This document shows positions 1,823-26,169 of a stretch of DNA of 26,169 nt, in pieces. Where the stretch lies: UHGV virus genome UHGV-0156931. One strand, written 5' to 3'. The notes beneath the pieces were generated by a model. It saw only the letters and a program-made list of their open reading frames with translations. It was not told the DNA's origin and searched no databases. Position 1 is the first letter of the stretch; the number at the start of each line of letters is the position of its first letter. Position numbers and translations under genes: made by a program. Source of the DNA: a virus.

Positions 1823-3154
1823 TCACTGAAGTAAAAAAACTTTTAAAGCATCTTTCACAATATTTGTTGGTTCACCAATACCGCCACTACCTTTTAAAAA
1901 ATGGTATTCACTCATTTCTGCCCATTGTCTTTTTATATTTTCCTCAGTAGGTAAAAGAGATGAGTTTTCAGATAAGTATTTGTAAACTATTCCAAATATA
2001 GCATATTCATAATTATCTACATTATATTCACTTGTTTGATATGAAAATTTAGACAAACCAAACAATTTCATGATTGATTGAGCATCAACTTTATCTTCAA
2101 GAAAGTTGAGAGCTAACTCTCGGTTAAAAGTGTAGATTATTATCGCTAGAGTCCTGTAATAACAATATCCATAAATATATTTGTTGCTAATTTTGTCGCC
2201 TGATAGTAGTTGGTATATTTCAACATATCTAGCAAGTGTTTCAACCTCACGTAATGATAATTTACTACTTTCAATGAACTGTAAGAAAATATCTTCGCTG
2301 GCTTCTACTGCAGCGGTCAGCCTTTCAGATTGCTCACATAGCATCATCCAATGATTTTTGGAAGTTAAAGTGTCATTATAATTATCTTCCTTAAAGGTAA
2401 CAGGAAGGCTGTATGTAAATTTTATAAATTTGTCAAGATAACGGTTGGAGTCTACAGAAGAGCCATAGATATGATTTATGGATGCTTTTAGTTGAGTTGT
2501 GTTTGCAATTAATAAAAAGTTAATGTTTTTTATATCAAAAACATGTTTTATATTTTCAATAATAGAAATGGCAAAACTAGGCTTACATCTGTCTAACTCA
2601 TCTATAATTATTGTTAGTTTACTTTCTCCAGCTAATTTGGTTAGTACTTCTTTTAGAGCAAGAACGTTCTTTTGTGCCTCGATATGATCTTCTAACAGAG
2701 CCTCGATGGTTCCATCGATAGCTGAATTTGCAGCGTCTTTGATAACCTCTTCAAATTCCTCATTAATTTCATCCGCATTTTGTTTTAATACCCAACCAGC
2801 ACCAGCTTTGAGTACAGTCTTAAGTCCGAATCTGAGGGCTGGTAATGCCTTAGATATTAATTCCTTTTTTTCATCGCTATTATATAGAGCTGCAATTGCG
2901 GCCATTATTGTAAGTATGGGAGCATCGTTGTGATCTTCAGTAAAAGCATCTATATAAACTACTTTATGATTGGTCGAGTTTATTTCAATTAAGGATGCTA
3001 ACTTTTTTGAAAACTCTGTTTTTCCAGTCCCCCAGTCCCCATCTATGACCATAGGTGAAACAGGAATATTAGACTCTAGCAAACTTATTATTTTTTCTGC
3101 AATGGCTTTTCTTTTATATTCATCACGTATATCGAAAGTTATATCTGTGCTCAT
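1823..3154 (-). CDS. KAP-family P-loop NTPase (accessory cargo in the lysogenic operon)
   Basis: 443 aa. Walker A GDWGTGKT (GxWGxGKT/S is the KAP signature), Walker B IIIDELDRC. RBS AAGGAAA upstream of the ATG at 3154. Visibly AT-rich compared with the phage backbone. Sits between cI and int. Confidence 0.8.
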   Translation of the reverse strand: MSTDITFDIRDEYKRKAIAEKIISLLESNIPVSPMVIDGDWGTGKTEFSKKLASLIEINSTNHKVVYIDAFTEDHNDAPILTIMAAIAALYNSDEKKELISKALPALRFGLKTVLKAGAGWVLKQNADEINEEFEEVIKDAANSAIDGTIEALLEDHIEAQKNVLALKEVLTKLAGESKLTIIIDELDRCKPSFAISIIENIKHVFDIKNINFLLIANTTQLKASINHIYGSSVDSNRYLDKFIKFTYSLPVTFKEDNYNDTLTSKNHWMMLCEQSERLTAAVEASEDIFLQFIESSKLSLREVETLARYVEIYQLLSGDKISNKYIYGYCYYRTLAIIIYTFNRELALNFLEDKVDAQSIMKLFGLSKFSYQTSEYNVDNYEYAIFGIVYKYLSENSSLLPTEENIKRQWAEMSEYHFLKGSGGIGEPTNIVKDALKVFLLQ

Positions 3155-3167
3155 TCATATTTCCTTA

Positions 3168-3350
3168 TTATTTGATGCATGTTTTTTTGGATTTACTGAT
3201 GGTTCCATCATTGCAAACAAATTTTCCATCAGAGGTACAGTGAGAGACACCTCCCTTTTTCCCAGAACAAGGATAATTTTTAGCATAGGTAGTTAGTGGG
3301 TTTAATAACAAAGAGCATGATAAAACCACAAAAAAAAACTTACCAAGCAT
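3168..3350 (-). CDS. Small exported Lys-rich, 4-Cys peptide (60 aa), unknown function
   Basis: N-terminal signal-peptide-like segment [23 protein letters not shown]. Predicted mature ~37 aa with 4 Cys and 8 Lys. GGAGG RBS 5 nt upstream of the ATG. Starts ~15 nt after the cI stop and ends 13 nt before the KAP gene start. Confidence 0.5.
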
Positions 3351-3365
3351 AGTTTCCTCCAGGTA

Positions 3366-4022
3366 TTATCTAACATACTTAACTGTTAAGCTTATAATTT
3401 TTCCAATTATTTCAACATCTTCTATCTTGCACTCGAAGGCTCTGTTTCCACCTTCAACGAAAATTCTTCCACCGGGTAAACGAGTGATGTCGCGGATTGT
3501 TATTTCGCCATCAATACTTATTACCCATTTACCATCACGTATATCATCAAATTCTTTATCACAAATAAATTCAGAATTGTTATCTGTGATGACAAAAGGT
3601 TTTTTAAACGTAGAGGGTAGAAATCCCTTATCAAAAATATAAAAACCGTCTTCCTGCAATGCTCCATCAGACAATAAATATTTTACTACTTCTATAGTAT
3701 TTGTATTTGCTGATGCTTGCTTTGAACCATGCCCTGTTGTTAGCCAATTAAGCGAGGTACCCGTTTCAAGGGCGCACTGGATTACCCAATCTGCCGGAAA
3801 AATATCACGCATATAACGCGTTGCCATGGTGCTCTTAGAAACACCTAAATGATCACAGAGAGCCTGACGGGTACCGAACCCGTATGCTTCAACCAAACGT
3901 TCTATGGCTTTCTTACCGCCGCTATTGAAATCCACAAATCCTCCAAAGAAATCCAAAATTCGTTGACAGATTCCAAAAGCGATCTTAAAGTTGAACCAGA
4001 AGTCTTCTTTTGGAGCCTTCAC
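3366..4022 (-). CDS. cI: Immunity repressor, 186 CI type (N-terminal HTH)
   Basis: 218-aa ORF starting at GTG 4022. Segment ERLVEAYGFGTRQALCDHLGVSKSTMATRYMR...CALETGTSLNWLTTGHG matches the HTH region pattern of 186-type CI as recalled. First gene of the leftward operon ending in int. True start may be internal. Confidence 0.8.
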   Translation of the reverse strand: MKAPKEDFWFNFKIAFGICQRILDFFGGFVDFNSGGKKAIERLVEAYGFGTRQALCDHLGVSKSTMATRYMRDIFPADWVIQCALETGTSLNWLTTGHGSKQASANTNTIEVVKYLLSDGALQEDGFYIFDKGFLPSTFKKPFVITDNNSEFICDKEFDDIRDGKWVISIDGEITIRDITRLPGGRIFVEGGNRAFECKIEDVEIIGKIISLTVKYVR

Positions 4023-10964: not shown

Positions 10965-11006
10965 TAGATCATGCAGGTGCATGAAAACCACTACATAAAG
11001 CGGGCA

Positions 11007-11025
11007 GGCGTGGCGGGGATACGAG
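11007..11025. other. Candidate cos site (cohesive-end region)
   Basis: GGCGTGGCGGGGATACGAG: the first 13 nt match the P2/186 cohesive-end start GGCG(A/T)GGCGGGGA as recalled. Position relative to Q and P fits P2-family cos. Recollection-based. Confidence 0.35.
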
Positions 11026-11033
11026 CGCGCGCA

Positions 11034-11056
11034 TTGATTTCAAAAGATGAAATCAA
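11034..11056. promoter_or_regulatory. Palindrome TTGATTTC-N7-GAAATCAA upstream of the 565-aa cargo gene
   Basis: Perfect 8-bp inverted arms (11034-11041, 11049-11056) about 50 bp upstream of the ATG at 11103. Possible operator or promoter element. Confidence 0.3.
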
Positions 11057-11102
11057 GTGGTACGATAAGTAGGATTACTACCAATTCTCAAAGGGATGTC
11101 TC

Positions 11103-12800
11103 ATGCATAGAATTGTTAAAGCTCATCTTGATAACTTCGTGAAAAGTCACGGTATTGAAAATCATCAAGAGGACACGCAGTTCGAGCTATTTTGTAATAA
11201 AGCTTTGCTGTCTTCTCGTATAAGTATGGATTATGAAATTGACGATGTAACAACCGGGGCTGGTGATGATGGCATGGATGGTGTTGCCATCATAATTGAT
11301 GAAGAATTGTGTATATCTTCTGAAGATGCTACTTCAATATTTTCCTCATTACGTAAAAATCATGATGTTGATATTGTTTTCATTCAATCAAAGCGTAGTG
11401 AGTCTTTTGATTTAGGTGATTTTTTAAAGTTTAAAGCTTCCGTTTTTAGATTTATAGAGGATTCTCCTTACTTATGTGTGGATGAAATTCAAAAAAATGC
11501 AAGGGAAGTTTTTGATGTCATAATAAAAAATGTACCTAAGATAAGAGGTGGGCGACCAACTTTTACTGCTAAATATGTTGCAACTGGTTTATATAAAAAA
11601 CCTAAAGAGTTAGAGAATGCTCGGAAGTTATTTGCAAAAGAAATTGACGAGTTGGGATATTTCTGTAATGTTAGCGTTGAGTTTGTTGATCGTGATGAAT
11701 TAACACGTACTTGGATTGATACTTATTCAGTTGTCAATGCTGAATTGCCATTATTTAGTAATGCACCACTTCCCAAAATTAATGGTATAGAAGAAGCTTA
11801 TCTTGCTGTCGTTAAAGCAAAGGATTTTGTTGGTAATTTATTGATGACGGACGAGGGGTCTCTCCGTAATCATGTTTTTGTTGAGAACGTCCGGGCGTTC
11901 TTGGGAATTGATAATCCTGTTAACGCATCGATTGCTGAGACAATTAAAAATAAAGATGCCGCTTCACGATTTCCTGTTTTAAATAATGGAATAACAATTG
12001 TTAGTCCGGATGTAAAACTTCAAGGGAGTATTTTACATCTAGAAAATTTTCAGATAGTTAATGGCTGTCAGACATCAAATGTGCTTTACGAATGCCGCGA
12101 TTCCTTAGATGATACGATGATGGTTAACTTGAAAGTCGTAGAGACATTAAACGAAGATGTTTTTTCAGAATTGGTTCGAGCGACTAACAGTCAGACTAAG
12201 GTTGATGAGACTCAGTTCTATTCTCTTCGTCCAATAATAAAGAAAGTAGAAGCGTACTTTGATACTTATGAAGGGCAGGATGGTCGTTTATATTTAGAAA
12301 GACGTGAAAGACAATTTATCGGTAGAGATATACCTGCAGTTAGAGTATTTTCAGTTCATATGGCAGCTAAATGTGTAGCAGCTATGTTCTTCCGTCGGCC
12401 AGATCTTTCATACAGATACCCTAAAAAAATGTATGAATTGTTGGCTGAGAAAATATTTTCTAATGATACCAAGGAGATTGTATTTTATTCAGCATGTTTA
12501 ACATTATATAGATTACACTTACTTACTTCTAATGCTGATATTCCACAAAATATCAGGAAGTACAAATGGCATTTAATGGCGGTAGTTGGTGCTTTAATTG
12601 CCGGAAAGGATGTGCCTAATTTTGGCTCTAAGAAAATGGATGCGTATTGTAATAAAATCATCACTGAAATGACAAAGCATGGTGATAAAATAAAAGCTAC
12701 TTTCCAGAAGGCTGTTGATATTGTTTTGTCAATTGATGATATCACTGATGATAGAATGAAAAGGCAAGCTATTTTAGAGGAAATGCTTGCCAAGATTTAA
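11103..12800 (+). CDS. 565-aa cargo protein: Mrr-like PD-(D/E)xK nuclease N-terminus with an AIPR-like body; candidate abortive-infection/defence protein
   Basis: Intact ORF, RBS AAGGGA. N-terminal TGAGDDGMDGVAIIID...VDIVFIQSKRS resembles the GDxGxDG...QxK signature of Mrr-type nucleases. Later NGITIV...IVNGCQTSN motif recalled from AIPR-type proteins (unverified). No Walker A. Strongly AT-rich. Bracketed by terminators. Confidence 0.85.
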   Translation: MHRIVKAHLDNFVKSHGIENHQEDTQFELFCNKALLSSRISMDYEIDDVTTGAGDDGMDGVAIIIDEELCISSEDATSIFSSLRKNHDVDIVFIQSKRSESFDLGDFLKFKASVFRFIEDSPYLCVDEIQKNAREVFDVIIKNVPKIRGGRPTFTAKYVATGLYKKPKELENARKLFAKEIDELGYFCNVSVEFVDRDELTRTWIDTYSVVNAELPLFSNAPLPKINGIEEAYLAVVKAKDFVGNLLMTDEGSLRNHVFVENVRAFLGIDNPVNASIAETIKNKDAASRFPVLNNGITIVSPDVKLQGSILHLENFQIVNGCQTSNVLYECRDSLDDTMMVNLKVVETLNEDVFSELVRATNSQTKVDETQFYSLRPIIKKVEAYFDTYEGQDGRLYLERRERQFIGRDIPAVRVFSVHMAAKCVAAMFFRRPDLSYRYPKKMYELLAEKIFSNDTKEIVFYSACLTLYRLHLLTSNADIPQNIRKYKWHLMAVVGALIAGKDVPNFGSKKMDAYCNKIITEMTKHGDKIKATFQKAVDIVLSIDDITDDRMKRQAILEEMLAKI

Positions 12801-12852
12801 TTATACCTTGACATGTATATTAACGTGATTTTTTAAGTTGAATATCTAAGTA

Positions 12853-12884
12853 AAAAGAGTGCTTTTATTGTTAAGCACTCTTTT
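12853..12884. terminator. Bidirectional intrinsic terminator between convergent genes
   Basis: Perfect 12-bp inverted repeat AAAAGAGTGCTT / AAGCACTCTTTT with 8-nt loop, flanked by U-runs on both strands. Lies between the cargo gene stop (12800) and the Q stop (12888). Confidence 0.65.
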
Positions 12885-12887
12885 TTA

Positions 12888-13922
12888 TTAAGCTAACTCA
12901 AGGCTATATGTATTGAATTTAATAATGTCATCTTCTACCCACTCATTAATTTCTTTGATTCTTTCCTGTAAGGGGGTTAATTCGTTACGGACGAATACCT
13001 TGCTGGCTTTTTCAATATCGCCAAATCCACCAGTGTTTTGTGGAATAATGCCCATCATCTGCGGAGGAACTCGATGTGCTGCCATCATGTCATCGCGACT
13101 GACATTTTTGATATTCAGAAACTCATCCTTCGCCGCGACTTCTGACAACGGGATGATCTGAAGCCCGTCCTTTTTGCCGTTAGGCGAGTACATAAACAAA
13201 TTGCGGAAGTTGCCTGGACCTTTGGCACTTTTCATCGCGTTGCGGAGGTTGTTTACATCTTCCTGGTTTTGCGCGGCGTCGGTCATGTACATGATGAAGC
13301 CTGCATGACTGCCGTTAATGTAATACTTCCGGCGGAACAGCGTGGCGGACTCGTTGAGCAGGGCTGACGGAATGACAGAAAGATAGCCGGGCAGGCCGTA
13401 GATTTCTTGATTAATATCCGGCTCCATCAGGTGAAAAATGCTGCCTTTCGTGAACTGATACGGCTGCGTGGTCATGCCGTATTGCACAAACCAGTAGGTA
13501 TCCAGGTCTAACCCGCGTCGGGTGTATTTTGCCAGCGCAGGCTCAAGGGCGATAACTTCACCGAATCGGTTCGTGCGTTTCTCCAGGTAGGCGTTACCAA
13601 ATACCAGATAGTCCTGCACAAAACGCGAAAAAGCCTGCTGGCTGAGCAGCGGATGAGGGATATAGGTACTGGTCAGAATGTTGCATTTCACCGCAATTGG
13701 TGAACTGTGGTGCACGGCAGCGCGGAAGGTGCGCGCCAGTCCGTCAAAGCTGACGGGCGGCTCATACCAGCGATCTGTCTGTACGCATTCCACATAGTCC
13801 AGCAGTTCTCGGCGGTCCAGAACAGGAACGGGATCGCCGAAGCTGAATACTTCGGCTGTAGTCTGGCTTTTAAGCTGGATCTGTTTCGTCGCCGCAGCGC
13901 GGTTTTTCTTACTCTTTCCCAT
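12888..13922 (-). CDS. Q: Portal protein (P2 gpQ family)
   Basis: ATG at 13922 (ORF 13925 begins at TTG) gives 344 aa, the size of P2 Q. Start overlaps the terminase stop. Position next to cos and upstream of terminase P. Confidence 0.9.
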   Translation of the reverse strand: MGKSKKNRAAATKQIQLKSQTTAEVFSFGDPVPVLDRRELLDYVECVQTDRWYEPPVSFDGLARTFRAAVHHSSPIAVKCNILTSTYIPHPLLSQQAFSRFVQDYLVFGNAYLEKRTNRFGEVIALEPALAKYTRRGLDLDTYWFVQYGMTTQPYQFTKGSIFHLMEPDINQEIYGLPGYLSVIPSALLNESATLFRRKYYINGSHAGFIMYMTDAAQNQEDVNNLRNAMKSAKGPGNFRNLFMYSPNGKKDGLQIIPLSEVAAKDEFLNIKNVSRDDMMAAHRVPPQMMGIIPQNTGGFGDIEKASKVFVRNELTPLQERIKEINEWVEDDIIKFNTYSLELA

Positions 13923-15688
13923 CAAAAAATCTCCACAATATTGCTGGTATTGGCGGACTCGCCCTGCAGCGGTTCGTTAAACAGTGCGTGCATTGTTGCC
14001 CAGGCCAGATCGGCATGGCTGGTTTCTTCGCTGCGGCTGGCTTCATAGGTTGGGCGGTTGCCGCTGGCAGTGGTGGCGCGACGGATTGCCATAAAGGACT
14101 GCGCTATGTCGGTGTGCCCGGCGTCAAACTCTAGGCGGCGGTGGCTAATAATGTCGTAGGCCTTGAGTACCAGGGCGTTTTTAACGTTGGGGTTGTAGAC
14201 AAACTCCCGGACGGCAGGAAAAAACGCTTTCACGTTCTCGTAAACCCCGTGACCGACGCCGGTTGAGTCGATACCGATATATGTCACGTTGTACTGTTCG
14301 GTCAGTTTTTTGATGGCGTCAGCCTGGGCGCGGAAGTCCATTCCGCGCCACTGGTGACGCTCAAGAATGCGGAACTTACCACCTGGCACGGCTGGCGGTG
14401 CCACCACCACGCATCCGGCGCTGTCGCCGTTCTGCGTACCTTTTGCCGGGTCATAACCGATCCACACTTCGCGCCAGCCAAACGGGCGCAGCGCCAGTGC
14501 ATGAAAGTCGGTCCAGACTTCCCAGCTGTCTACCATGCACGCCTGCAGCTCGCTGAGCGGGAATACGGACGCGAGATCGTCCACGAACTCACACATCAGC
14601 AGATTCTGGTATTCGTCCGGGCTGTACTCCATGCGCAACTGGTCAAGGTCGAACAGGTTACATCCGCCGCGCACCGCATCTTCCACAGTGACTATCTGGC
14701 GGTACTGCCCGTCTGCGCACAGCAGGCCGGGGGCCAGATTGCTGTGGGACAGGTCGATGTCCACCTTATCGGCTTTGTTGCGCCCTCGGTTGAACAGCGC
14801 ACCGGACCAGAACGGATAAGCACTGTGTGTCAGGCTGGATGGCGTGGAAAAATAGGTCTGTCGCCATTTTTTGTGAATAGCCATACCGGAAGCCACTTTG
14901 CGCAGCTCCTGGAATTTCGGTATCCAGAAATATTCATCCAGATACAGGTTGCCGTGGTAACTCTGGGCCGTGCGGGCATTGGTGCCGAGGAAGTAAAGCG
15001 TGGCCCCGTTAGGAAGCACCATCGGATCACCTTTCAGCTCCACCTCGACTTCTTTGGCGAAATCGATGATGTACTGCTTAAAGACGTGAGCCTGTGCCTT
15101 ACTGGCAGAAAGGAAAATCTGGTTACGTCCGGTAAGCAGGGCGTCAATCAGGGCCTCACGGGCAAAATAGAAGGTCGCGCCGATCTGGCGTGACTTTAGC
15201 AGGTTGCGGATGCGGTTGGTTTTTCCGGCTTCCCACCAGTGGCGCTGGTAGTTAAACATGGAGGAATGGAAAATTTCTTCCAGCTTCTCAATTTGTTCAT
15301 CGGTGAAAACATTCTTTTCAGGCTGACGGCGTGGGCCTTTGTTGCGGTTGGCGACGTTAGGGTTTAAGTCGGCTTCGTTGCCGCCATTGTTAAACTTGCC
15401 GATCCGCGCGTGGCGCTCAGACTGGCGCGCCAGCAGGTCAATCTCTTTGAAATCTTTCCCTTCTTTGTGCTCCTTCATGATGAGCTGGCAGTAGCGTGCG
15501 GCGGTGGTGAGCTGCATCTGATCCAGCGGCCCATAGTCACCCCACTTGTCGCGTTTTTTCCAGCTGTGAACGGTTGCAACTTTCTCGCCCAGCATTTCAG
15601 CAATGCGGGCTACGCGGTATCCCTGAAAGTACAGCAGCATGGCCTGCCGACGGGGATCGAGATCTGCGGGTGTCAGTGTGGTGTTCAT
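13922..15688 (-). CDS. P: Terminase large (ATPase) subunit (P2 gpP family)
   Basis: 588 aa, divergent from O; size and position fit P2 gpP. Assignment by synteny and length. Confidence 0.9.
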   Translation of the reverse strand: MNTTLTPADLDPRRQAMLLYFQGYRVARIAEMLGEKVATVHSWKKRDKWGDYGPLDQMQLTTAARYCQLIMKEHKEGKDFKEIDLLARQSERHARIGKFNNGGNEADLNPNVANRNKGPRRQPEKNVFTDEQIEKLEEIFHSSMFNYQRHWWEAGKTNRIRNLLKSRQIGATFYFAREALIDALLTGRNQIFLSASKAQAHVFKQYIIDFAKEVEVELKGDPMVLPNGATLYFLGTNARTAQSYHGNLYLDEYFWIPKFQELRKVASGMAIHKKWRQTYFSTPSSLTHSAYPFWSGALFNRGRNKADKVDIDLSHSNLAPGLLCADGQYRQIVTVEDAVRGGCNLFDLDQLRMEYSPDEYQNLLMCEFVDDLASVFPLSELQACMVDSWEVWTDFHALALRPFGWREVWIGYDPAKGTQNGDSAGCVVVAPPAVPGGKFRILERHQWRGMDFRAQADAIKKLTEQYNVTYIGIDSTGVGHGVYENVKAFFPAVREFVYNPNVKNALVLKAYDIISHRRLEFDAGHTDIAQSFMAIRRATTASGNRPTYEASRSEETSHADLAWATMHALFNEPLQGESANTSNIVEIF

Positions 15689-22285: not shown

Positions 22286-22641
22286 CGCTTTATAGCGGGA
22301 TGAACAATACCAGCGGTAAAGCCATTACTGATATTGACCATCTGCGCCAGTCGGTGCGGGACATTTTGCTGACGCCGCAGGGTAGCCGCATTGCCCGTCG
22401 GGAATATGGTTCCCTGCTGTCGGCACTGATAGACCAGCCACAAAATCCGGCATTACGCCTGCAGGTCATGTCGGCAGTGTATGTGGCGCTGAGTCGCTGG
22501 GAGCCACGGCTGACGCTGGATTCCATCACCCTTAACAGCAATTTTGACGGTTCAATGGTGGTGGAGCTGACCGGGCGACGTAATAACGGTGTGCCTGTTT
22601 CCCTTTCCGTATCAACAGGAGCAGAGAATGGCAGTGATTGA
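22282..22641 (+). CDS. W: Baseplate protein W (GPW/gp25 family)
   Basis: 119 aa, translationally coupled to V and J. Size and position fit P2 gpW. Confidence 0.88.
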   Translation: MTLYSGMNNTSGKAITDIDHLRQSVRDILLTPQGSRIARREYGSLLSALIDQPQNPALRLQVMSAVYVALSRWEPRLTLDSITLNSNFDGSMVVELTGRRNNGVPVSLSVSTGAENGSD

Positions 22642-23536
22642 CCTTTCGCAGTTGCCTGCGCCGCAGATTGTGGATGTGCCGGACTTTGAGACGCTGCTTG
22701 CCGAACGCAAGGCCGAATTTGTTGCGCTTCATCCGAAAGATGAGCAGGAAGCAGTGATCCGCACGCTGGAACTGGAATCTGAACCCGTCACCAAATTGCT
22801 TCAGGAGAACGCTTACCGTGAGTTGCTTCTGCGCCAGCGCATTAACGAAGCCGCGCATGCTGTGATGGTGGCTTACGCGATGGGCGGCGATCTTGACCAG
22901 CTCGCTGCCAACTACAACGTGAAACGCCTGACGGTGACGCCTGCTGATAATGACGCTGTGCCACCCGTTGCGGCTGTGATGGAAAGCGATGAAGCGTTAC
23001 GCCTGCGTGTGCCTGCGGCTTTTGAAGGGCTTTCGGTTGCGGGGCCAACCGCAGCTTATGAATTTCATGCCCGAAGCGCCGACGGTCGGGTGGCGGATGC
23101 CAGTGCAACCAGCCCGGCACCTGCAGAGGTGGTGCTAACGGTCCTAAGCCGTGAAGGCGACGGAACAGCAGAAAAAGACCTGCTGGACGTGGTGGAAAAA
23201 GCTCTGAACAGTGAGAACGTTCGCCCGGTGGCTGACCGTCTGACGGTTCGCAGCGCAGAAATCATCCCGTATCGCGTGGAAGCCACCATTTTTCTCTATC
23301 CGGGGCCGGAAGCAGAGCCGGTAATGGCAGCGGCAAAAGCCAGCCTGCAGAAATACATCGCCAGTCAGACGCGGCTTGGTCGGGATATTCGCCGTAGCGC
23401 CATCTTTGCCGCCCTGCATGTTGAGGGTGTGCAGCGTGTGGAGCTGGCTTCGCCGCTGGCGGATGTGGTTTTGAACAAAACGCAGGCGGCATCATGTACG
23501 GAGTGGAGCGTGACCAACGGGGGAACGGATGAATAG
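22628..23536 (+). CDS. J: Baseplate protein J (P2 gpJ family)
   Basis: ATG at 22628 with AGGAGCAGAG RBS gives 302 aa, the same length as P2 gpJ (ORF 22589 begins upstream). Confidence 0.9.
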   Translation: MAVIDLSQLPAPQIVDVPDFETLLAERKAEFVALHPKDEQEAVIRTLELESEPVTKLLQENAYRELLLRQRINEAAHAVMVAYAMGGDLDQLAANYNVKRLTVTPADNDAVPPVAAVMESDEALRLRVPAAFEGLSVAGPTAAYEFHARSADGRVADASATSPAPAEVVLTVLSREGDGTAEKDLLDVVEKALNSENVRPVADRLTVRSAEIIPYRVEATIFLYPGPEAEPVMAAAKASLQKYIASQTRLGRDIRRSAIFAALHVEGVQRVELASPLADVVLNKTQAASCTEWSVTNGGTDE

Positions 23537-24134
23537 TCTGCTGCCATCGGGGTCAACTTCACTGGAGCGCCGACTGGCGCAAACGTGCAGCGGGATTTCT
23601 GATCTGCAGGTGCCGCTGCGTGACTTGTGGAATCCGGCTACCTGCCCGGTCAGCTTCCTGCCTTATCTCGCCTGGGCGTTCTCTGTGGATCGCTGGGACG
23701 AAGGCTGGACAGAAAGCGTCAAGCGCCAGGTGGTGAAGGATGCTTTTTATATTCATCAGCATAAAGGGACCACCAGTGCCGTGCGGCGGGTGGTGGAGCC
23801 GTTCGGCTTTCTGATCCGCATTATTGAGTGGTGGCAAACCGGAGAGGCACCGGGCACGTTTCGCCTGGATATCGGCGTGCAGGACCAGGGCATCACTGAA
23901 GATACCTATCTGGAACTTGAGCGACTGATAAGCGATGCCAAACCATGTAGCCGCCACATGATCGGCATGTCCATCAATCTGCAGACCAGCGGCCCGTATT
24001 GGGTGGGAGCCGCCAGCTATCTTGGCGAAGAAATCACCATCTATCCGTATATCAACGAAACGATTATTTCCGGTGGCACCGCGCATGAAGGCGGGGCGGT
24101 CCATGTTATTGACACAATGAGAGTGAATCCATGA
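23529..24134 (+). CDS. I: Tail/baseplate protein I (P2 gpI family)
   Basis: 201 aa. Start overlaps the J end; stop overlaps the H start. Position fits P2 gpI. Confidence 0.82.
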   Translation: MNSLLPSGSTSLERRLAQTCSGISDLQVPLRDLWNPATCPVSFLPYLAWAFSVDRWDEGWTESVKRQVVKDAFYIHQHKGTTSAVRRVVEPFGFLIRIIEWWQTGEAPGTFRLDIGVQDQGITEDTYLELERLISDAKPCSRHMIGMSINLQTSGPYWVGAASYLGEEITIYPYINETIISGGTAHEGGAVHVIDTMRVNP

Positions 24135-26169
24135 GCACAAAATTTTATACCCTGCTGACGGATATTGGCGCGGCGAAACTTGCCAGCGCCGCCGCGCTCG
24201 GTGTGCCGCTAAAAATTACCCATATGGCGGTGGGCGATGGCGGCGGAGTATTGCCAACGCCGGACGCAAAGCAGACGGCACTGGTAAATGAGAAACGCCG
24301 GGCTGCGCTGAATATGCTCTATATCGACCCGCAAAACAGCAGCCAGATTATTGCTGAACAGGTGATCTCTGAAAACGAGGGCGGTTGGTGGATACGTGAA
24401 GTGGGCCTGTTTGATGAATCCGGGGCACTAATTGCCGTGGGCAACTGCCCGGAAAGCTATAAGCCGCAACTGGCTGAAGGCAGCGGGCGCACCCAGACCG
24501 TGCGCATGGTGCTGATTACCAGCAGTACGGACAATATCACCCTGAAAATTGACCCTGCCGTAGTGCTGGCAACCCGCAAGTATGTGGATGACAAAATCTC
24601 AGAACACGAACAGTCACGACGACACCCGGATGCATCGCTGACCGCAAAAGGTTTTACTCAGTTAAGCAGCGCAACCAACAGCACGTCTGAAACACTGGCC
24701 GCAACGCCGAGAGCGGTAAAGGTCGCGTATGACCTTGCTAACGGGAAATATACTGCACAGGACGCGACCACAGCGCGAAAAGGTCTTGTCCAGCTCAGTA
24801 GCGCCACCAACAGCGATTCTGAAACGCTTGCGGCAACGCCAAAGGCGGTAAAGACAGCATATGACCTTGCTAACGGGAAATATACCGCACAGGACGCGAC
24901 CACAGCGCGAAAAGGCCTTGTCCAGCTCAGCAGCGCCACTAACAGCACGTCAGAAACGCAGGCTGCCACACCAAAAGCCGTGAAGGCTGTATATGACCTT
25001 GCCAATGGAAAACAACCTGCCGACGCCACACTGACCGCACTGGCAGGCCTTGCCACTGCGGCAGACAAACTACCGTATTTTACGGGGAATGATACAGCCA
25101 GCCTGACAACACTGACTAATGTTGGACGGGATATTCTGGCTAAAACAAGCACACAGGAGGTTATTCAGTATATTGGTTGCCCGGCATCTCCTACTGGTTG
25201 GTTAAAAACAGGTAATAACGGTGAGTCAATAACGACAGCTCAGTTAGTTACTTTGTTGCAAAATAATGGGGCATTCAATACGAAAGCATGGTTCGCTCGT
25301 TGTGCATGGTCGTATGCAACTAGTGCATCCATACCAGACAGTGAAACTGGTTGTGGCATTATTCCACTGGCGGGTGCTGTGATAGAAGTATTCAGCAATA
25401 ATACCGACAATTACACTATTCGAATAACAACAGCCACGACGACAAGTGTCTCTGGTGCACTCACTAATGCGGAGTTTATCTATGTGTTTAACGCGTCTGG
25501 CAGCACAAGTTATTCACCTGGATGGCGCAGAGCGTATAACACTAAAAATAAACCTACTACTACTGACCTTGGCTTGAGCGATGAAAGTGGATACGTTGGG
25601 CGCCTGATAAGCACTAGGGTTTTCACGTCATCAGGTACGTACATCCCGACGCCAGGAACAAAACGGCTCAGGGTCACAATAACGGGCGGCGGTGGCGGAG
25701 GGGGCGGCTGCCAGGCTATATCCAATAACGAGACGTTTTTCGGTGCTGGCGGTGGGGCCGGGGGAACAGTAATTATCACGCCGACCCTGACGAATGATAG
25801 ACATCCTGTCACTATCGGCGCAGGTGGGGCCGGCGGTGTTGGTGCGAAAGTCGGCCTCAAGGGCGGTGATAGCTCGTTCGGATCGGTAATAGCCCCAGGC
25901 GGTGAAGGCGGCGGAAAGTTAGGAGTCACAAACACAAACGGTGGTAACGGAGGCGTGCCAAGTATTGGCAATATCAAAATCATTGGTGGATGTGGAGGCG
26001 ACGGTCAGTCCGGAAATATCAGCGTCAGCGGTGAAGGCGGAACATCGTACTGGGGGGGCGGTGGACGCGCAGGCGCTGGCGGTGGCGTTAGCGGTAAGGC
26101 ATATGGTTCAGGTGGCGGTGGCGCATACGATGCCGGTTATAGCGGAACCAGTATGACAGGCGGGAAAGG
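24131..26169 (+). CDS. H: Tail fibre protein H (partial; 3-prime end beyond the window)
   Basis: ATG at 24131 overlapping the I stop. Frame read open to the window end (so not in the stop-bounded ORF track). N-terminus MSTKFYTLLTDIGAAKLASA...MAVGDGGG is the conserved P2 gpH anchor domain. Contains tandem fibre repeats and a Gly-rich C-terminal region. Confidence 0.85.
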   Translation, partial: MSTKFYTLLTDIGAAKLASAAALGVPLKITHMAVGDGGGVLPTPDAKQTALVNEKRRAALNMLYIDPQNSSQIIAEQVISENEGGWWIREVGLFDESGALIAVGNCPESYKPQLAEGSGRTQTVRMVLITSSTDNITLKIDPAVVLATRKYVDDKISEHEQSRRHPDASLTAKGFTQLSSATNSTSETLAATPRAVKVAYDLANGKYTAQDATTARKGLVQLSSATNSDSETLAATPKAVKTAYDLANGKYTAQDATTARKGLVQLSSATNSTSETQAATPKAVKAVYDLANGKQPADATLTALAGLATAADKLPYFTGNDTASLTTLTNVGRDILAKTSTQEVIQYIGCPASPTGWLKTGNNGESITTAQLVTLLQNNGAFNTKAWFARCAWSYATSASIPDSETGCGIIPLAGAVIEVFSNNTDNYTIRITTATTTSVSGALTNAEFIYVFNASGSTSYSPGWRRAYNTKNKPTTTDLGLSDESGYVGRLISTRVFTSSGTYIPTPGTKRLRVTITGGGGGGGGCQAISNNETFFGAGGGAGGTVIITPTLTNDRHPVTIGAGGAGGVGAKVGLKGGDSSFGSVIAPGGEGGGKLGVTNTNGGNGGVPSIGNIKIIGGCGGDGQSGNISVSGEGGTSYWGGGGRAGAGGGVSGKAYGSGGGGAYDAGYSGTSMTGGK
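24648..25010 (+). repeat. About 2.7 tandem copies of a ~132-bp (44-aa) coding repeat inside the tail-fibre gene
   Basis: Units KG(F/L)(T/V)QLSSATNSxSETLAATPxAVKxAYDLANGKYTAQDATTAR repeat at the protein level with near-identical DNA. They produce the repetitive antisense ORF 24658..25152. Confidence 0.85.

Follow-up and report, generated by a model that had tools for sequence, protein, structure and literature searches.

Whether the distal part of a phage tail fibre came from a different source than the part that docks to the virion is the question raised by tail-fibre gene H of the virus genome UHGV-0156931, of which a stretch of 26,169 nt (the window) was analysed. The window covers the left arm and late operon of a P2/186-type Escherichia coli (E. 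coli) prophage. A preliminary description of it, made from the DNA letters, noted an AT-rich stretch and then an extremely Gly-rich segment in H and proposed a mosaic fibre. Gene H is indeed a mosaic, composed of three parts, which we refer to as modules A, B and C. The distal fibre was very probably built by recombination from these exchangeable modules, with C acting as a receptor-binding tip that is folded by a chaperone.

The reading frame of H begins with an ATG at 24131, within the last bases of gene I, and has no stop in the 679 codons up to the window end. A near-identical relative, a prophage in NZ_CP093317 (L001), is ~99.6-99.7% identical to the window (99.7% across the 2,669 nt compared, 23501-26169) and has an H of 691 codons. 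The gene therefore ends outside the window, as the preliminary description stated, and by only 12 codons (...GAAGICIIEEFA, then stop), judged from this near-identical copy. All strings quoted in that description (TGGGGGGGGC, GAGGGAGGT, GGCGGDGQSG and WGGGGRAGAGGG) lie inside the H frame. Pfam identified PF12571, three PF03406 repeats and PF21722 in H, every score above cut-off, with no match for amino acids (aa) 340-500; NCBIfam gave no match for either the fibre or the chaperone encoded behind it. In PHROG, the distal 340 aa align with the C-terminal parts of far longer fibre families (974 to 1,376 profile positions).

Module A (24131-25177, + strand) is the lineage's own baseplate anchor, repeats and linker. 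The N-terminal anchor (aa 1-150, 24131-24580) matches PF12571 Phage_tail_fib over the entire model (213 bits, positions 1-150 of 150) and is followed by three phage tail-fibre repeats (~aa 169-297, 24635-25021; PF03406 Phage_fiber_2, 200 bits, 3 stretches). The presence of PF12571 directly after baseplate genes J and I, with PF03406 repeats behind the anchor, is the arrangement of P2 gpH-type fibres. Tandem Repeats Finder detected a single real tandem array in H, at 24665-25002, with a period of 132 nt and 2.6 copies; number and type of the fibre repeats vary among relatives, e.g., in E. coli HS. The linker (25022-25177) ends with ...TLTNVGRDILAKTSTQEVIQYIG and forms the junction for module exchange, as homology to sister fibres lacking B stops at 25177. 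On the same strand follow B, an AT-rich in-frame cassette (~25178-25567), and C, the glycine-rich C-terminal tip (25568-26169), which the window cuts 12 codons before the stop. An antisense open reading frame (ORF) at 25510-25983 (minus strand) and an out-of-frame ORF at 25941-26156 (plus strand) appear to be by-products of GGN-rich coding.

The compositional break is pronounced. In 200-nt steps, the G+C fraction (GC) of 0.51-0.62 falls to 0.43-0.445 at 25100-25599 and rises again to 0.58-0.605, with maximum-likelihood change points at 25065 and 25645. Against a late-region mean of 0.564 ± 0.025 (500-nt steps), segment 25148-25650 has a GC of 0.449 (z = -4.6). The AT-rich stretch has a GC of 0.44 and a GC at third codon positions (GC3) of 0.35, compared with 0.56 and 0.64 in the late genes of the prophage (GC3 0.642 ± 0.029 over twelve late genes). 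Along H, GC3 is 0.612 in the anchor, 0.492 in the repeats and linker, 0.346 in the cassette (25178-25567) and 0.515 in 25568-26169. These values confirm the break and place it at synonymous sites; a flat GC profile, which the preliminary description had named as grounds for abandoning its proposal, is not what we observed. The apparent GC recovery after 25650 is mostly an amino-acid effect, since 33.5% of the codons there are GGN and the non-Gly codons have a GC of 0.46. Together with the GC3 profile, this low non-Gly value means that all of the fibre distal to the anchor departs from the composition of the backbone, beyond the AT-rich part. The extreme glycine content was likewise borne out: glycine accounts for 62 of 161 residues (38.5%) in aa 519-679 versus 6.5% in aa 1-340.

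The distribution of the parts among 5,426 complete E. coli genomes supports the mosaic reading. A 510-nt query spanning the anchor (24131-24640) was found in 1,063 records, 970 of them at >=95% identity, whereas the whole gene (>=80% of H covered) occurred in only 26. The distal region is hence not conserved together with its anchor in all relatives, the other outcome that the preliminary description had regarded as fatal to its proposal. Module C was found in 291 records, mostly chromosomal, and B in 225, where 185 of the 243 matching places lie on plasmids of ~80-240 kb; the plasmid that we inspected resembles P1 and has darA and the pseudogene of a recombinase close by. A separate search with the distal 340 aa against 1.84 billion cluster representatives, as the description had advised, gave 2,819 proteins at an expect value (E) of up to 0.001. 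It divided the distal part, treated until then as one unit, into two modules: the best 150 of the 2,819 proteins fall mostly into two groups, matching either residues ~9-148 or residues ~137-340 of the query, and about nine span both. NZ_CP173557 carries B at 99.8% and C at 87.3% identity, while NZ_CP053787 has C at 98.7% identity and no B. Modules B and C thus assort independently. In the collection of isolated phages, no record covered >=80% of the distal 340 aa, i.e., none contained B and C together.

At the level of single bases, a different P2-family prophage (L005) is one base off the window from 24926 to ~25700. Over 25170-25712, a single mismatch separates the window from the 1,566-aa fibre of the P1-like plasmid pEC1101_2 (L003); from 25617 to the end, it differs by 7 mismatches from L004, an stfP-type prophage whose baseplate is Mu-like. 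Sister fibres of the P2 type (559 and 583 aa; L006 and L007, one of them from E. coli HS) align with H up to 25177 and restart at 25568, with a 6-nt overlap. Consequently, B is an in-frame cassette that has no counterpart in these sisters, 396 nt or 132 codons long, with a boundary ambiguity of 6 nt. Where the 559-aa relative (P0030) reads ...VIQYLG|LSDASGYVGR..., the window reads ...VIQYIG-[B]-LGLSDESGYVGR...; the exchange points lie at short conserved peptide and DNA motifs.

Some side observations concern the fibres of relatives. In the P1-like plasmid (L003, 1337-6738), the P1-type fibre ends in B and C and is followed by a small chaperone gene and a frameshifted recombinase remnant; the invertible fibre switch seems to have been replaced by a fixed glycine-rich tip. 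Matches H9-H12, one of which is located on a 129-kb plasmid, are ~96% identical to the window from 24334 to the end but differ in the first ~200 nt. The 559-aa relative starts with MTVKYYAILTNQGAARLAN..., and the baseplate-proximal end of H may be subject to exchange as well.

Module B is a knob domain of the Mu S'/P1 Sv' kind, homologous in sequence and fold. It matched a single solved structure, 8ju3 (E 1.3e-24, chain residues 202-331), which the legend to a figure in one paper gives as phage Mu gp52, the S' fibre. Among isolated phages, tblastn located B in Mu S', D108 S', P1 Sv' and P7 Sv at 41-46% identity, and in phage Cyrano and a P1 variant at 81-82%. When B alone was compared with Pfam, a PorB match stayed below threshold (20.2 versus 22.5 bits) and was taken as chance. 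In the proteins compared, B is usually internal, with other domains after it, whereas C is always terminal. Module B most likely came from, or is common to, P1-like phage-plasmids, whose copy is one base off that of the window, and would have been inserted, with the frame kept, between ...IQYIG on one side and LGLSDESGYVGR on the other. It may act as an optional knob that adds reach or a second binding site.

Module C is predicted to have the fold of Pam3 gp24, a globular C-terminal tip made of a tumour necrosis factor (TNF)-like β-sandwich and ~12 glycine-rich motifs. Pfam assigns aa 500-677 to PF21722 Gly_rich_2 (30.2 bits versus a cut-off of 24.3; profile positions 2-213 of 226, the query being short by 12 residues). 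A profile built from 32 homologues of C matched Pam3 gp24 (7yfw_a; 7yfw/7ypx) with an E of 4e-13, profile positions 18-234 aligning with chain residues 62-276, i.e., the whole TNF-like domain and all of the chain after it. The structure prediction that the preliminary description had recommended for the Gly-rich part returned a confident globular AlphaFold model (pLDDT, predicted local distance difference test, 90.9; pTM, predicted template modelling score, 0.84), in which DSSP assigned short strands alternating with long unassigned stretches, as expected for polyglycine-II-like segments. The ~12 motifs were counted by inspection; Pam3 gp24 itself has 39% Gly and 12 motifs (PMC9608196). By analogy with that protein, the motifs of C would extend from the β-sandwich as a packed lattice of extended strands. 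Judged from the model, the fold is widespread among phage proteins: BFVD gave 163 matches at E up to 0.001, including a tail fibre of jumbo phage Goslar (66% identity, template modelling score 0.94).

All 154 homologous C modules in the proteins compared stop no more than ~30 residues from the protein end. The 10-19 residue bin holds 143 of them, as expected from a query without the last 12 residues, and the full-length relative (L001) ends 12 aa past the window end. Of the two roles suggested for the Gly-rich part, β-rich shaft or tip, it is the tip that stands and the shaft repeat that falls. The 'Gly-rich repeats' were also rejected as a DNA tandem repeat, because Tandem Repeats Finder found none in 25568-26169 except a 24-nt GGN run. 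Within C, a divergent patch (aa 528-626, 25713-26009, + strand) differs from L003 and L005 by 26 non-synonymous and 19 synonymous codons, and its flanks by 0 (25617-25712, 96 nt) and 8 (26010-26169, 160 nt) differences. Changes in the patch affect the loops between glycine-rich motifs and the strands alike, so that loop- or tip-restricted hypervariability was dropped as an interpretation and no claim of hypervariable loops is made.

A fibre-assembly chaperone gene, for which the preliminary description had advised inspecting the downstream sequence, was found directly after H in the near-identical prophage L001. It is a 137-aa ORF (10076-10489 in L001) that begins right at the H stop or overlaps with it (gcaTAATGaat), and it belongs to PF02413 Caudo_TAP (69.8 bits). 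Behind C, this gene is also present in L003, L004 and L005 (89-98% DNA identity), with homology ending near the C-terminus of the chaperone; module C therefore moves together with its chaperone gene across four phage backbones. In the product, the Caudo_TAP match covers the C-terminal part, and a short N-terminal part precedes it, a layout resembling the two-domain arrangement of Pam3 gp25 (PMC9608196). From the Pam3 gp24-gp25 structure and the Caudo_TAP family, it would be expected to assist folding and trimerisation of the fibre. RefSeq calls the gene of L001 a partial pseudogene 'missing N-terminus and C-terminus', yet the ORF is intact, and a similar label is attached in L003 and L007. Most probably, the short and atypical N-terminal domain of the chaperone misled the annotation.

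A function for C in receptor binding is suggested by analogy with Pam3 gp24, with TFP_Y of a Klebsiella phage and, more distantly, with S16 gp38. Pam3 gp24 was proposed as receptor binder, has a cognate chaperone and was described as the fibre's receptor-recognising distal domains (PMC9608196); TFP_Y recognises lipopolysaccharide (LPS), with host-adaptation mutations located in its glycine-rich domain (PMC12671077). Several points weigh against this reading of the distal fibre. Receptor binding by C, like a host-range-determining role of distal H, is suggested by distant homologues, with 28% identity to Pam3 gp24, and the Gly_rich_2 score is just modestly over its threshold. The structure models of C are monomers, although a trimer is expected, and in these models about two-thirds of the amino-acid changes of the patch fall in β-strand or hairpin segments and are not confined to the presumed distal loops. 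Since the window ends before the H stop codon, the chaperone and the last β-strand are seen only in relatives. Finally, B may have passed from a P1-like plasmid to the P2-like prophage or in the reverse direction.

A contrasting explanation would assign the main host-range function, or a second independent receptor site, to B, leaving C as a structural cap or folding nucleus. We consider it unlikely, because the B-homologous domain of Mu S' occupies residues 202-331 of 488 and so is not at the tip, B is mostly followed by other domains while C is always last, many P2-type fibres have C without B, and the functional data on the glycine-rich domain favour receptor contact (PMC9608196, PMC12671077). 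The high glycine content of C might instead point to a collagen-like shaft repeat, or C might be an intramolecular chaperone cleaved off after assembly, as C-terminal autoproteolytic chaperone domains (Peptidase_S74) do occur in some fibres and spikes. Either is highly improbable: C shows no G-X-Y periodicity and no tandem repeat, Pfam at E up to 1 gave neither a Peptidase_S74 nor a collagen match, the confident globular model matches a protein that is receptor-recognising according to its authors, and a separate chaperone gene follows the fibre gene.

Even less credit can be given to the view that the break reflects amino-acid composition or local selection in a vertically inherited gene, without any transfer. 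Glycine codons do cause the GC rise in C, but third codon positions show the steepest drop (0.346 versus 0.642 ± 0.029), the same DNA, with 1 mismatch in 543 nt, is present in the fibre of a P1-like plasmid, the N-terminus of which differs, sister fibres lack segment B entirely, and only 26 of the ~1,000 anchor-sharing records carry the whole gene. The base-level, anchor-count and sister-fibre comparisons have already refuted vertical inheritance, which would be revived only if the relatives were assembly artefacts. Recombination of exchangeable modules, with C as the chaperone-assisted receptor-binding tip, therefore remains our preferred reading. A diversity-generating retroelement or an inversion switch is unsupported, as no reverse transcriptase was present among the window ORFs scanned and neither an invertase nor a reverse transcriptase is annotated in L001.

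A bolder extension, which we regard as speculative and somewhat doubtful, is that C and the 137-aa chaperone constitute a self-contained host-range cassette shared by at least four E. coli backbones, namely P2-like prophages, a second P2-family type, P1-like phage-plasmids and the stfP-type prophage with the Mu-like baseplate. P2 itself uses the LPS core as receptor; the cassette would recognise a receptor class other than the LPS core, for example an outer-membrane protein, as is the case for gp38, a distant analogue. Module B would then serve as an optional add-on, giving a second specificity or a longer reach. If true, this would represent a common, so far uncharacterised adsorption system of temperate coliphages.

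Mosaic tail fibres are textbook knowledge for P2, Mu, P1, lambda and lambdoid, and T-even phages, and the classical picture of them is said to go back to Haggard-Ljungquist et al. in 1992 and Sandmeier in 1994. H shares with P2 gpH/gpG the conserved N-terminal anchor and the exchangeable C-terminal part with its cognate assembly protein, whereas P2 itself has distal modules other than B and C. In Mu (S', gp52) and P1 (Sv'), distal domains of their own and U/U' chaperones come after the knob, which is switched by DNA inversion. Here, in contrast, the knob is a fixed cassette with the glycine-rich tip after it; in L001 the sheath gene comes directly after the fibre and chaperone genes, and neither an invertase nor a second fibre end is present.

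Pam3 gp24 (PDB 7YFW/7YPX) with its chaperone gp25 has the same Gly_rich_2 tip fold, but it is a minimal fibre of 280 aa with an α-helical N-terminal dock, whereas in H the tip is mounted on a P2 gpH anchor, repeats and a Mu-type knob; moreover, the host of Pam3 is a cyanobacterium and the fibre described here is from E. coli. The Bxb1 gp33 'tail wing brush' and the gp29 tail spike subdomain (PDB 9D93), which we compared by description, belong to a siphovirus tail tip and have other attachment domains. With S16/T2-type gp38 (PDB 6F45) the likeness lies in a glycine-rich lattice at the fibre tip and variable receptor-binding (OmpC) loops, and the functional analogy between Pam3 gp24 and S16 gp38 has already been drawn by the Pam3 authors (PMC9608196). 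H does not fit the gp38 type, which is defined by a separate adhesin polypeptide with a three-layer polyglycine sandwich and homology to gp38.

Module C as such is already known: PF21722 is a curated family, the fold has been solved in Pam3 and Bxb1, and RefSeq names relatives 'glycine-rich domain-containing protein'. We found no literature on PF21722/Gly_rich_2, and a paper on P2 pseudotyping does not deal with glycine-rich P2 fibres. What is specific here is the combination of a P2 anchor, a Mu-type knob and a Pam3-type tip with base-resolved junctions. It represents the usual swapping of tail-fibre domains rather than a novel type of system, and does not depart from established mosaicism. 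It nevertheless shows cleanly, at base resolution, how interchangeable parts make up the fibres of temperate coliphages. It would also bring to the tip of common E. coli P2-like prophage fibres a fold for which solved structures have so far come only from a cyanophage and a mycobacteriophage. For retargeting P2-based particles, natural splice points are offered by the tip-chaperone unit and the junction motifs (...IQY[IL]G / LGLSDxSGYVGR).

The surroundings of H agree with the assignment of the prophage. Its early region encodes an integrase (691-1821), a CI repressor (3366-4022), CII, a Dam methylase and the GPA replication protein, and its late region contains head, lysis, tail and baseplate genes that match those annotated in L001. 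ORFs 22589-23536 and 23529-24134, upstream of H, correspond to 'baseplate assembly protein' and 'phage tail protein I' in that relative; by this similarity, the genes flanking H are assigned as P2-type baseplate and tail genes. A 99.8% identical prophage (L002, 5533-7699; NZ_CM143725) has deletions that cut H at the equivalent of window position 25721 and fuse the truncated H to the late control D gene, which points to a decayed prophage copy.

Two AT-rich islands were also noticed. The first (~2001-3500, GC 0.32-0.35) contains a gene for a 443-aa KAP-family P-loop nucleoside triphosphatase (1823-3154, - strand; PF07693, 184 bits; PADLOC candidate defence family PDC-S20, 569 bits), which lies between the integrase and the CI repressor and resembles an AT-rich defence gene carried as extra cargo of the prophage. 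The second (~11001-13000, GC 0.32-0.37) harbours a gene for a 565-aa AIPR protein (11103-12800, + strand; PF10592, 150 bits; PADLOC AbiU, 374 bits), a second AT-rich gene with a putative role in abortive infection. It lies between the replication region and the minus-strand ORF 12888-13925, which by position would be the P2 portal gene Q; in L001, an AIPR gene is located elsewhere, between the virion-morphogenesis and baseplate V genes. At the left window edge, an ORF for a TetR-family regulator (20-586, + strand) adjoins the integrase and may represent host flank past the attachment site.

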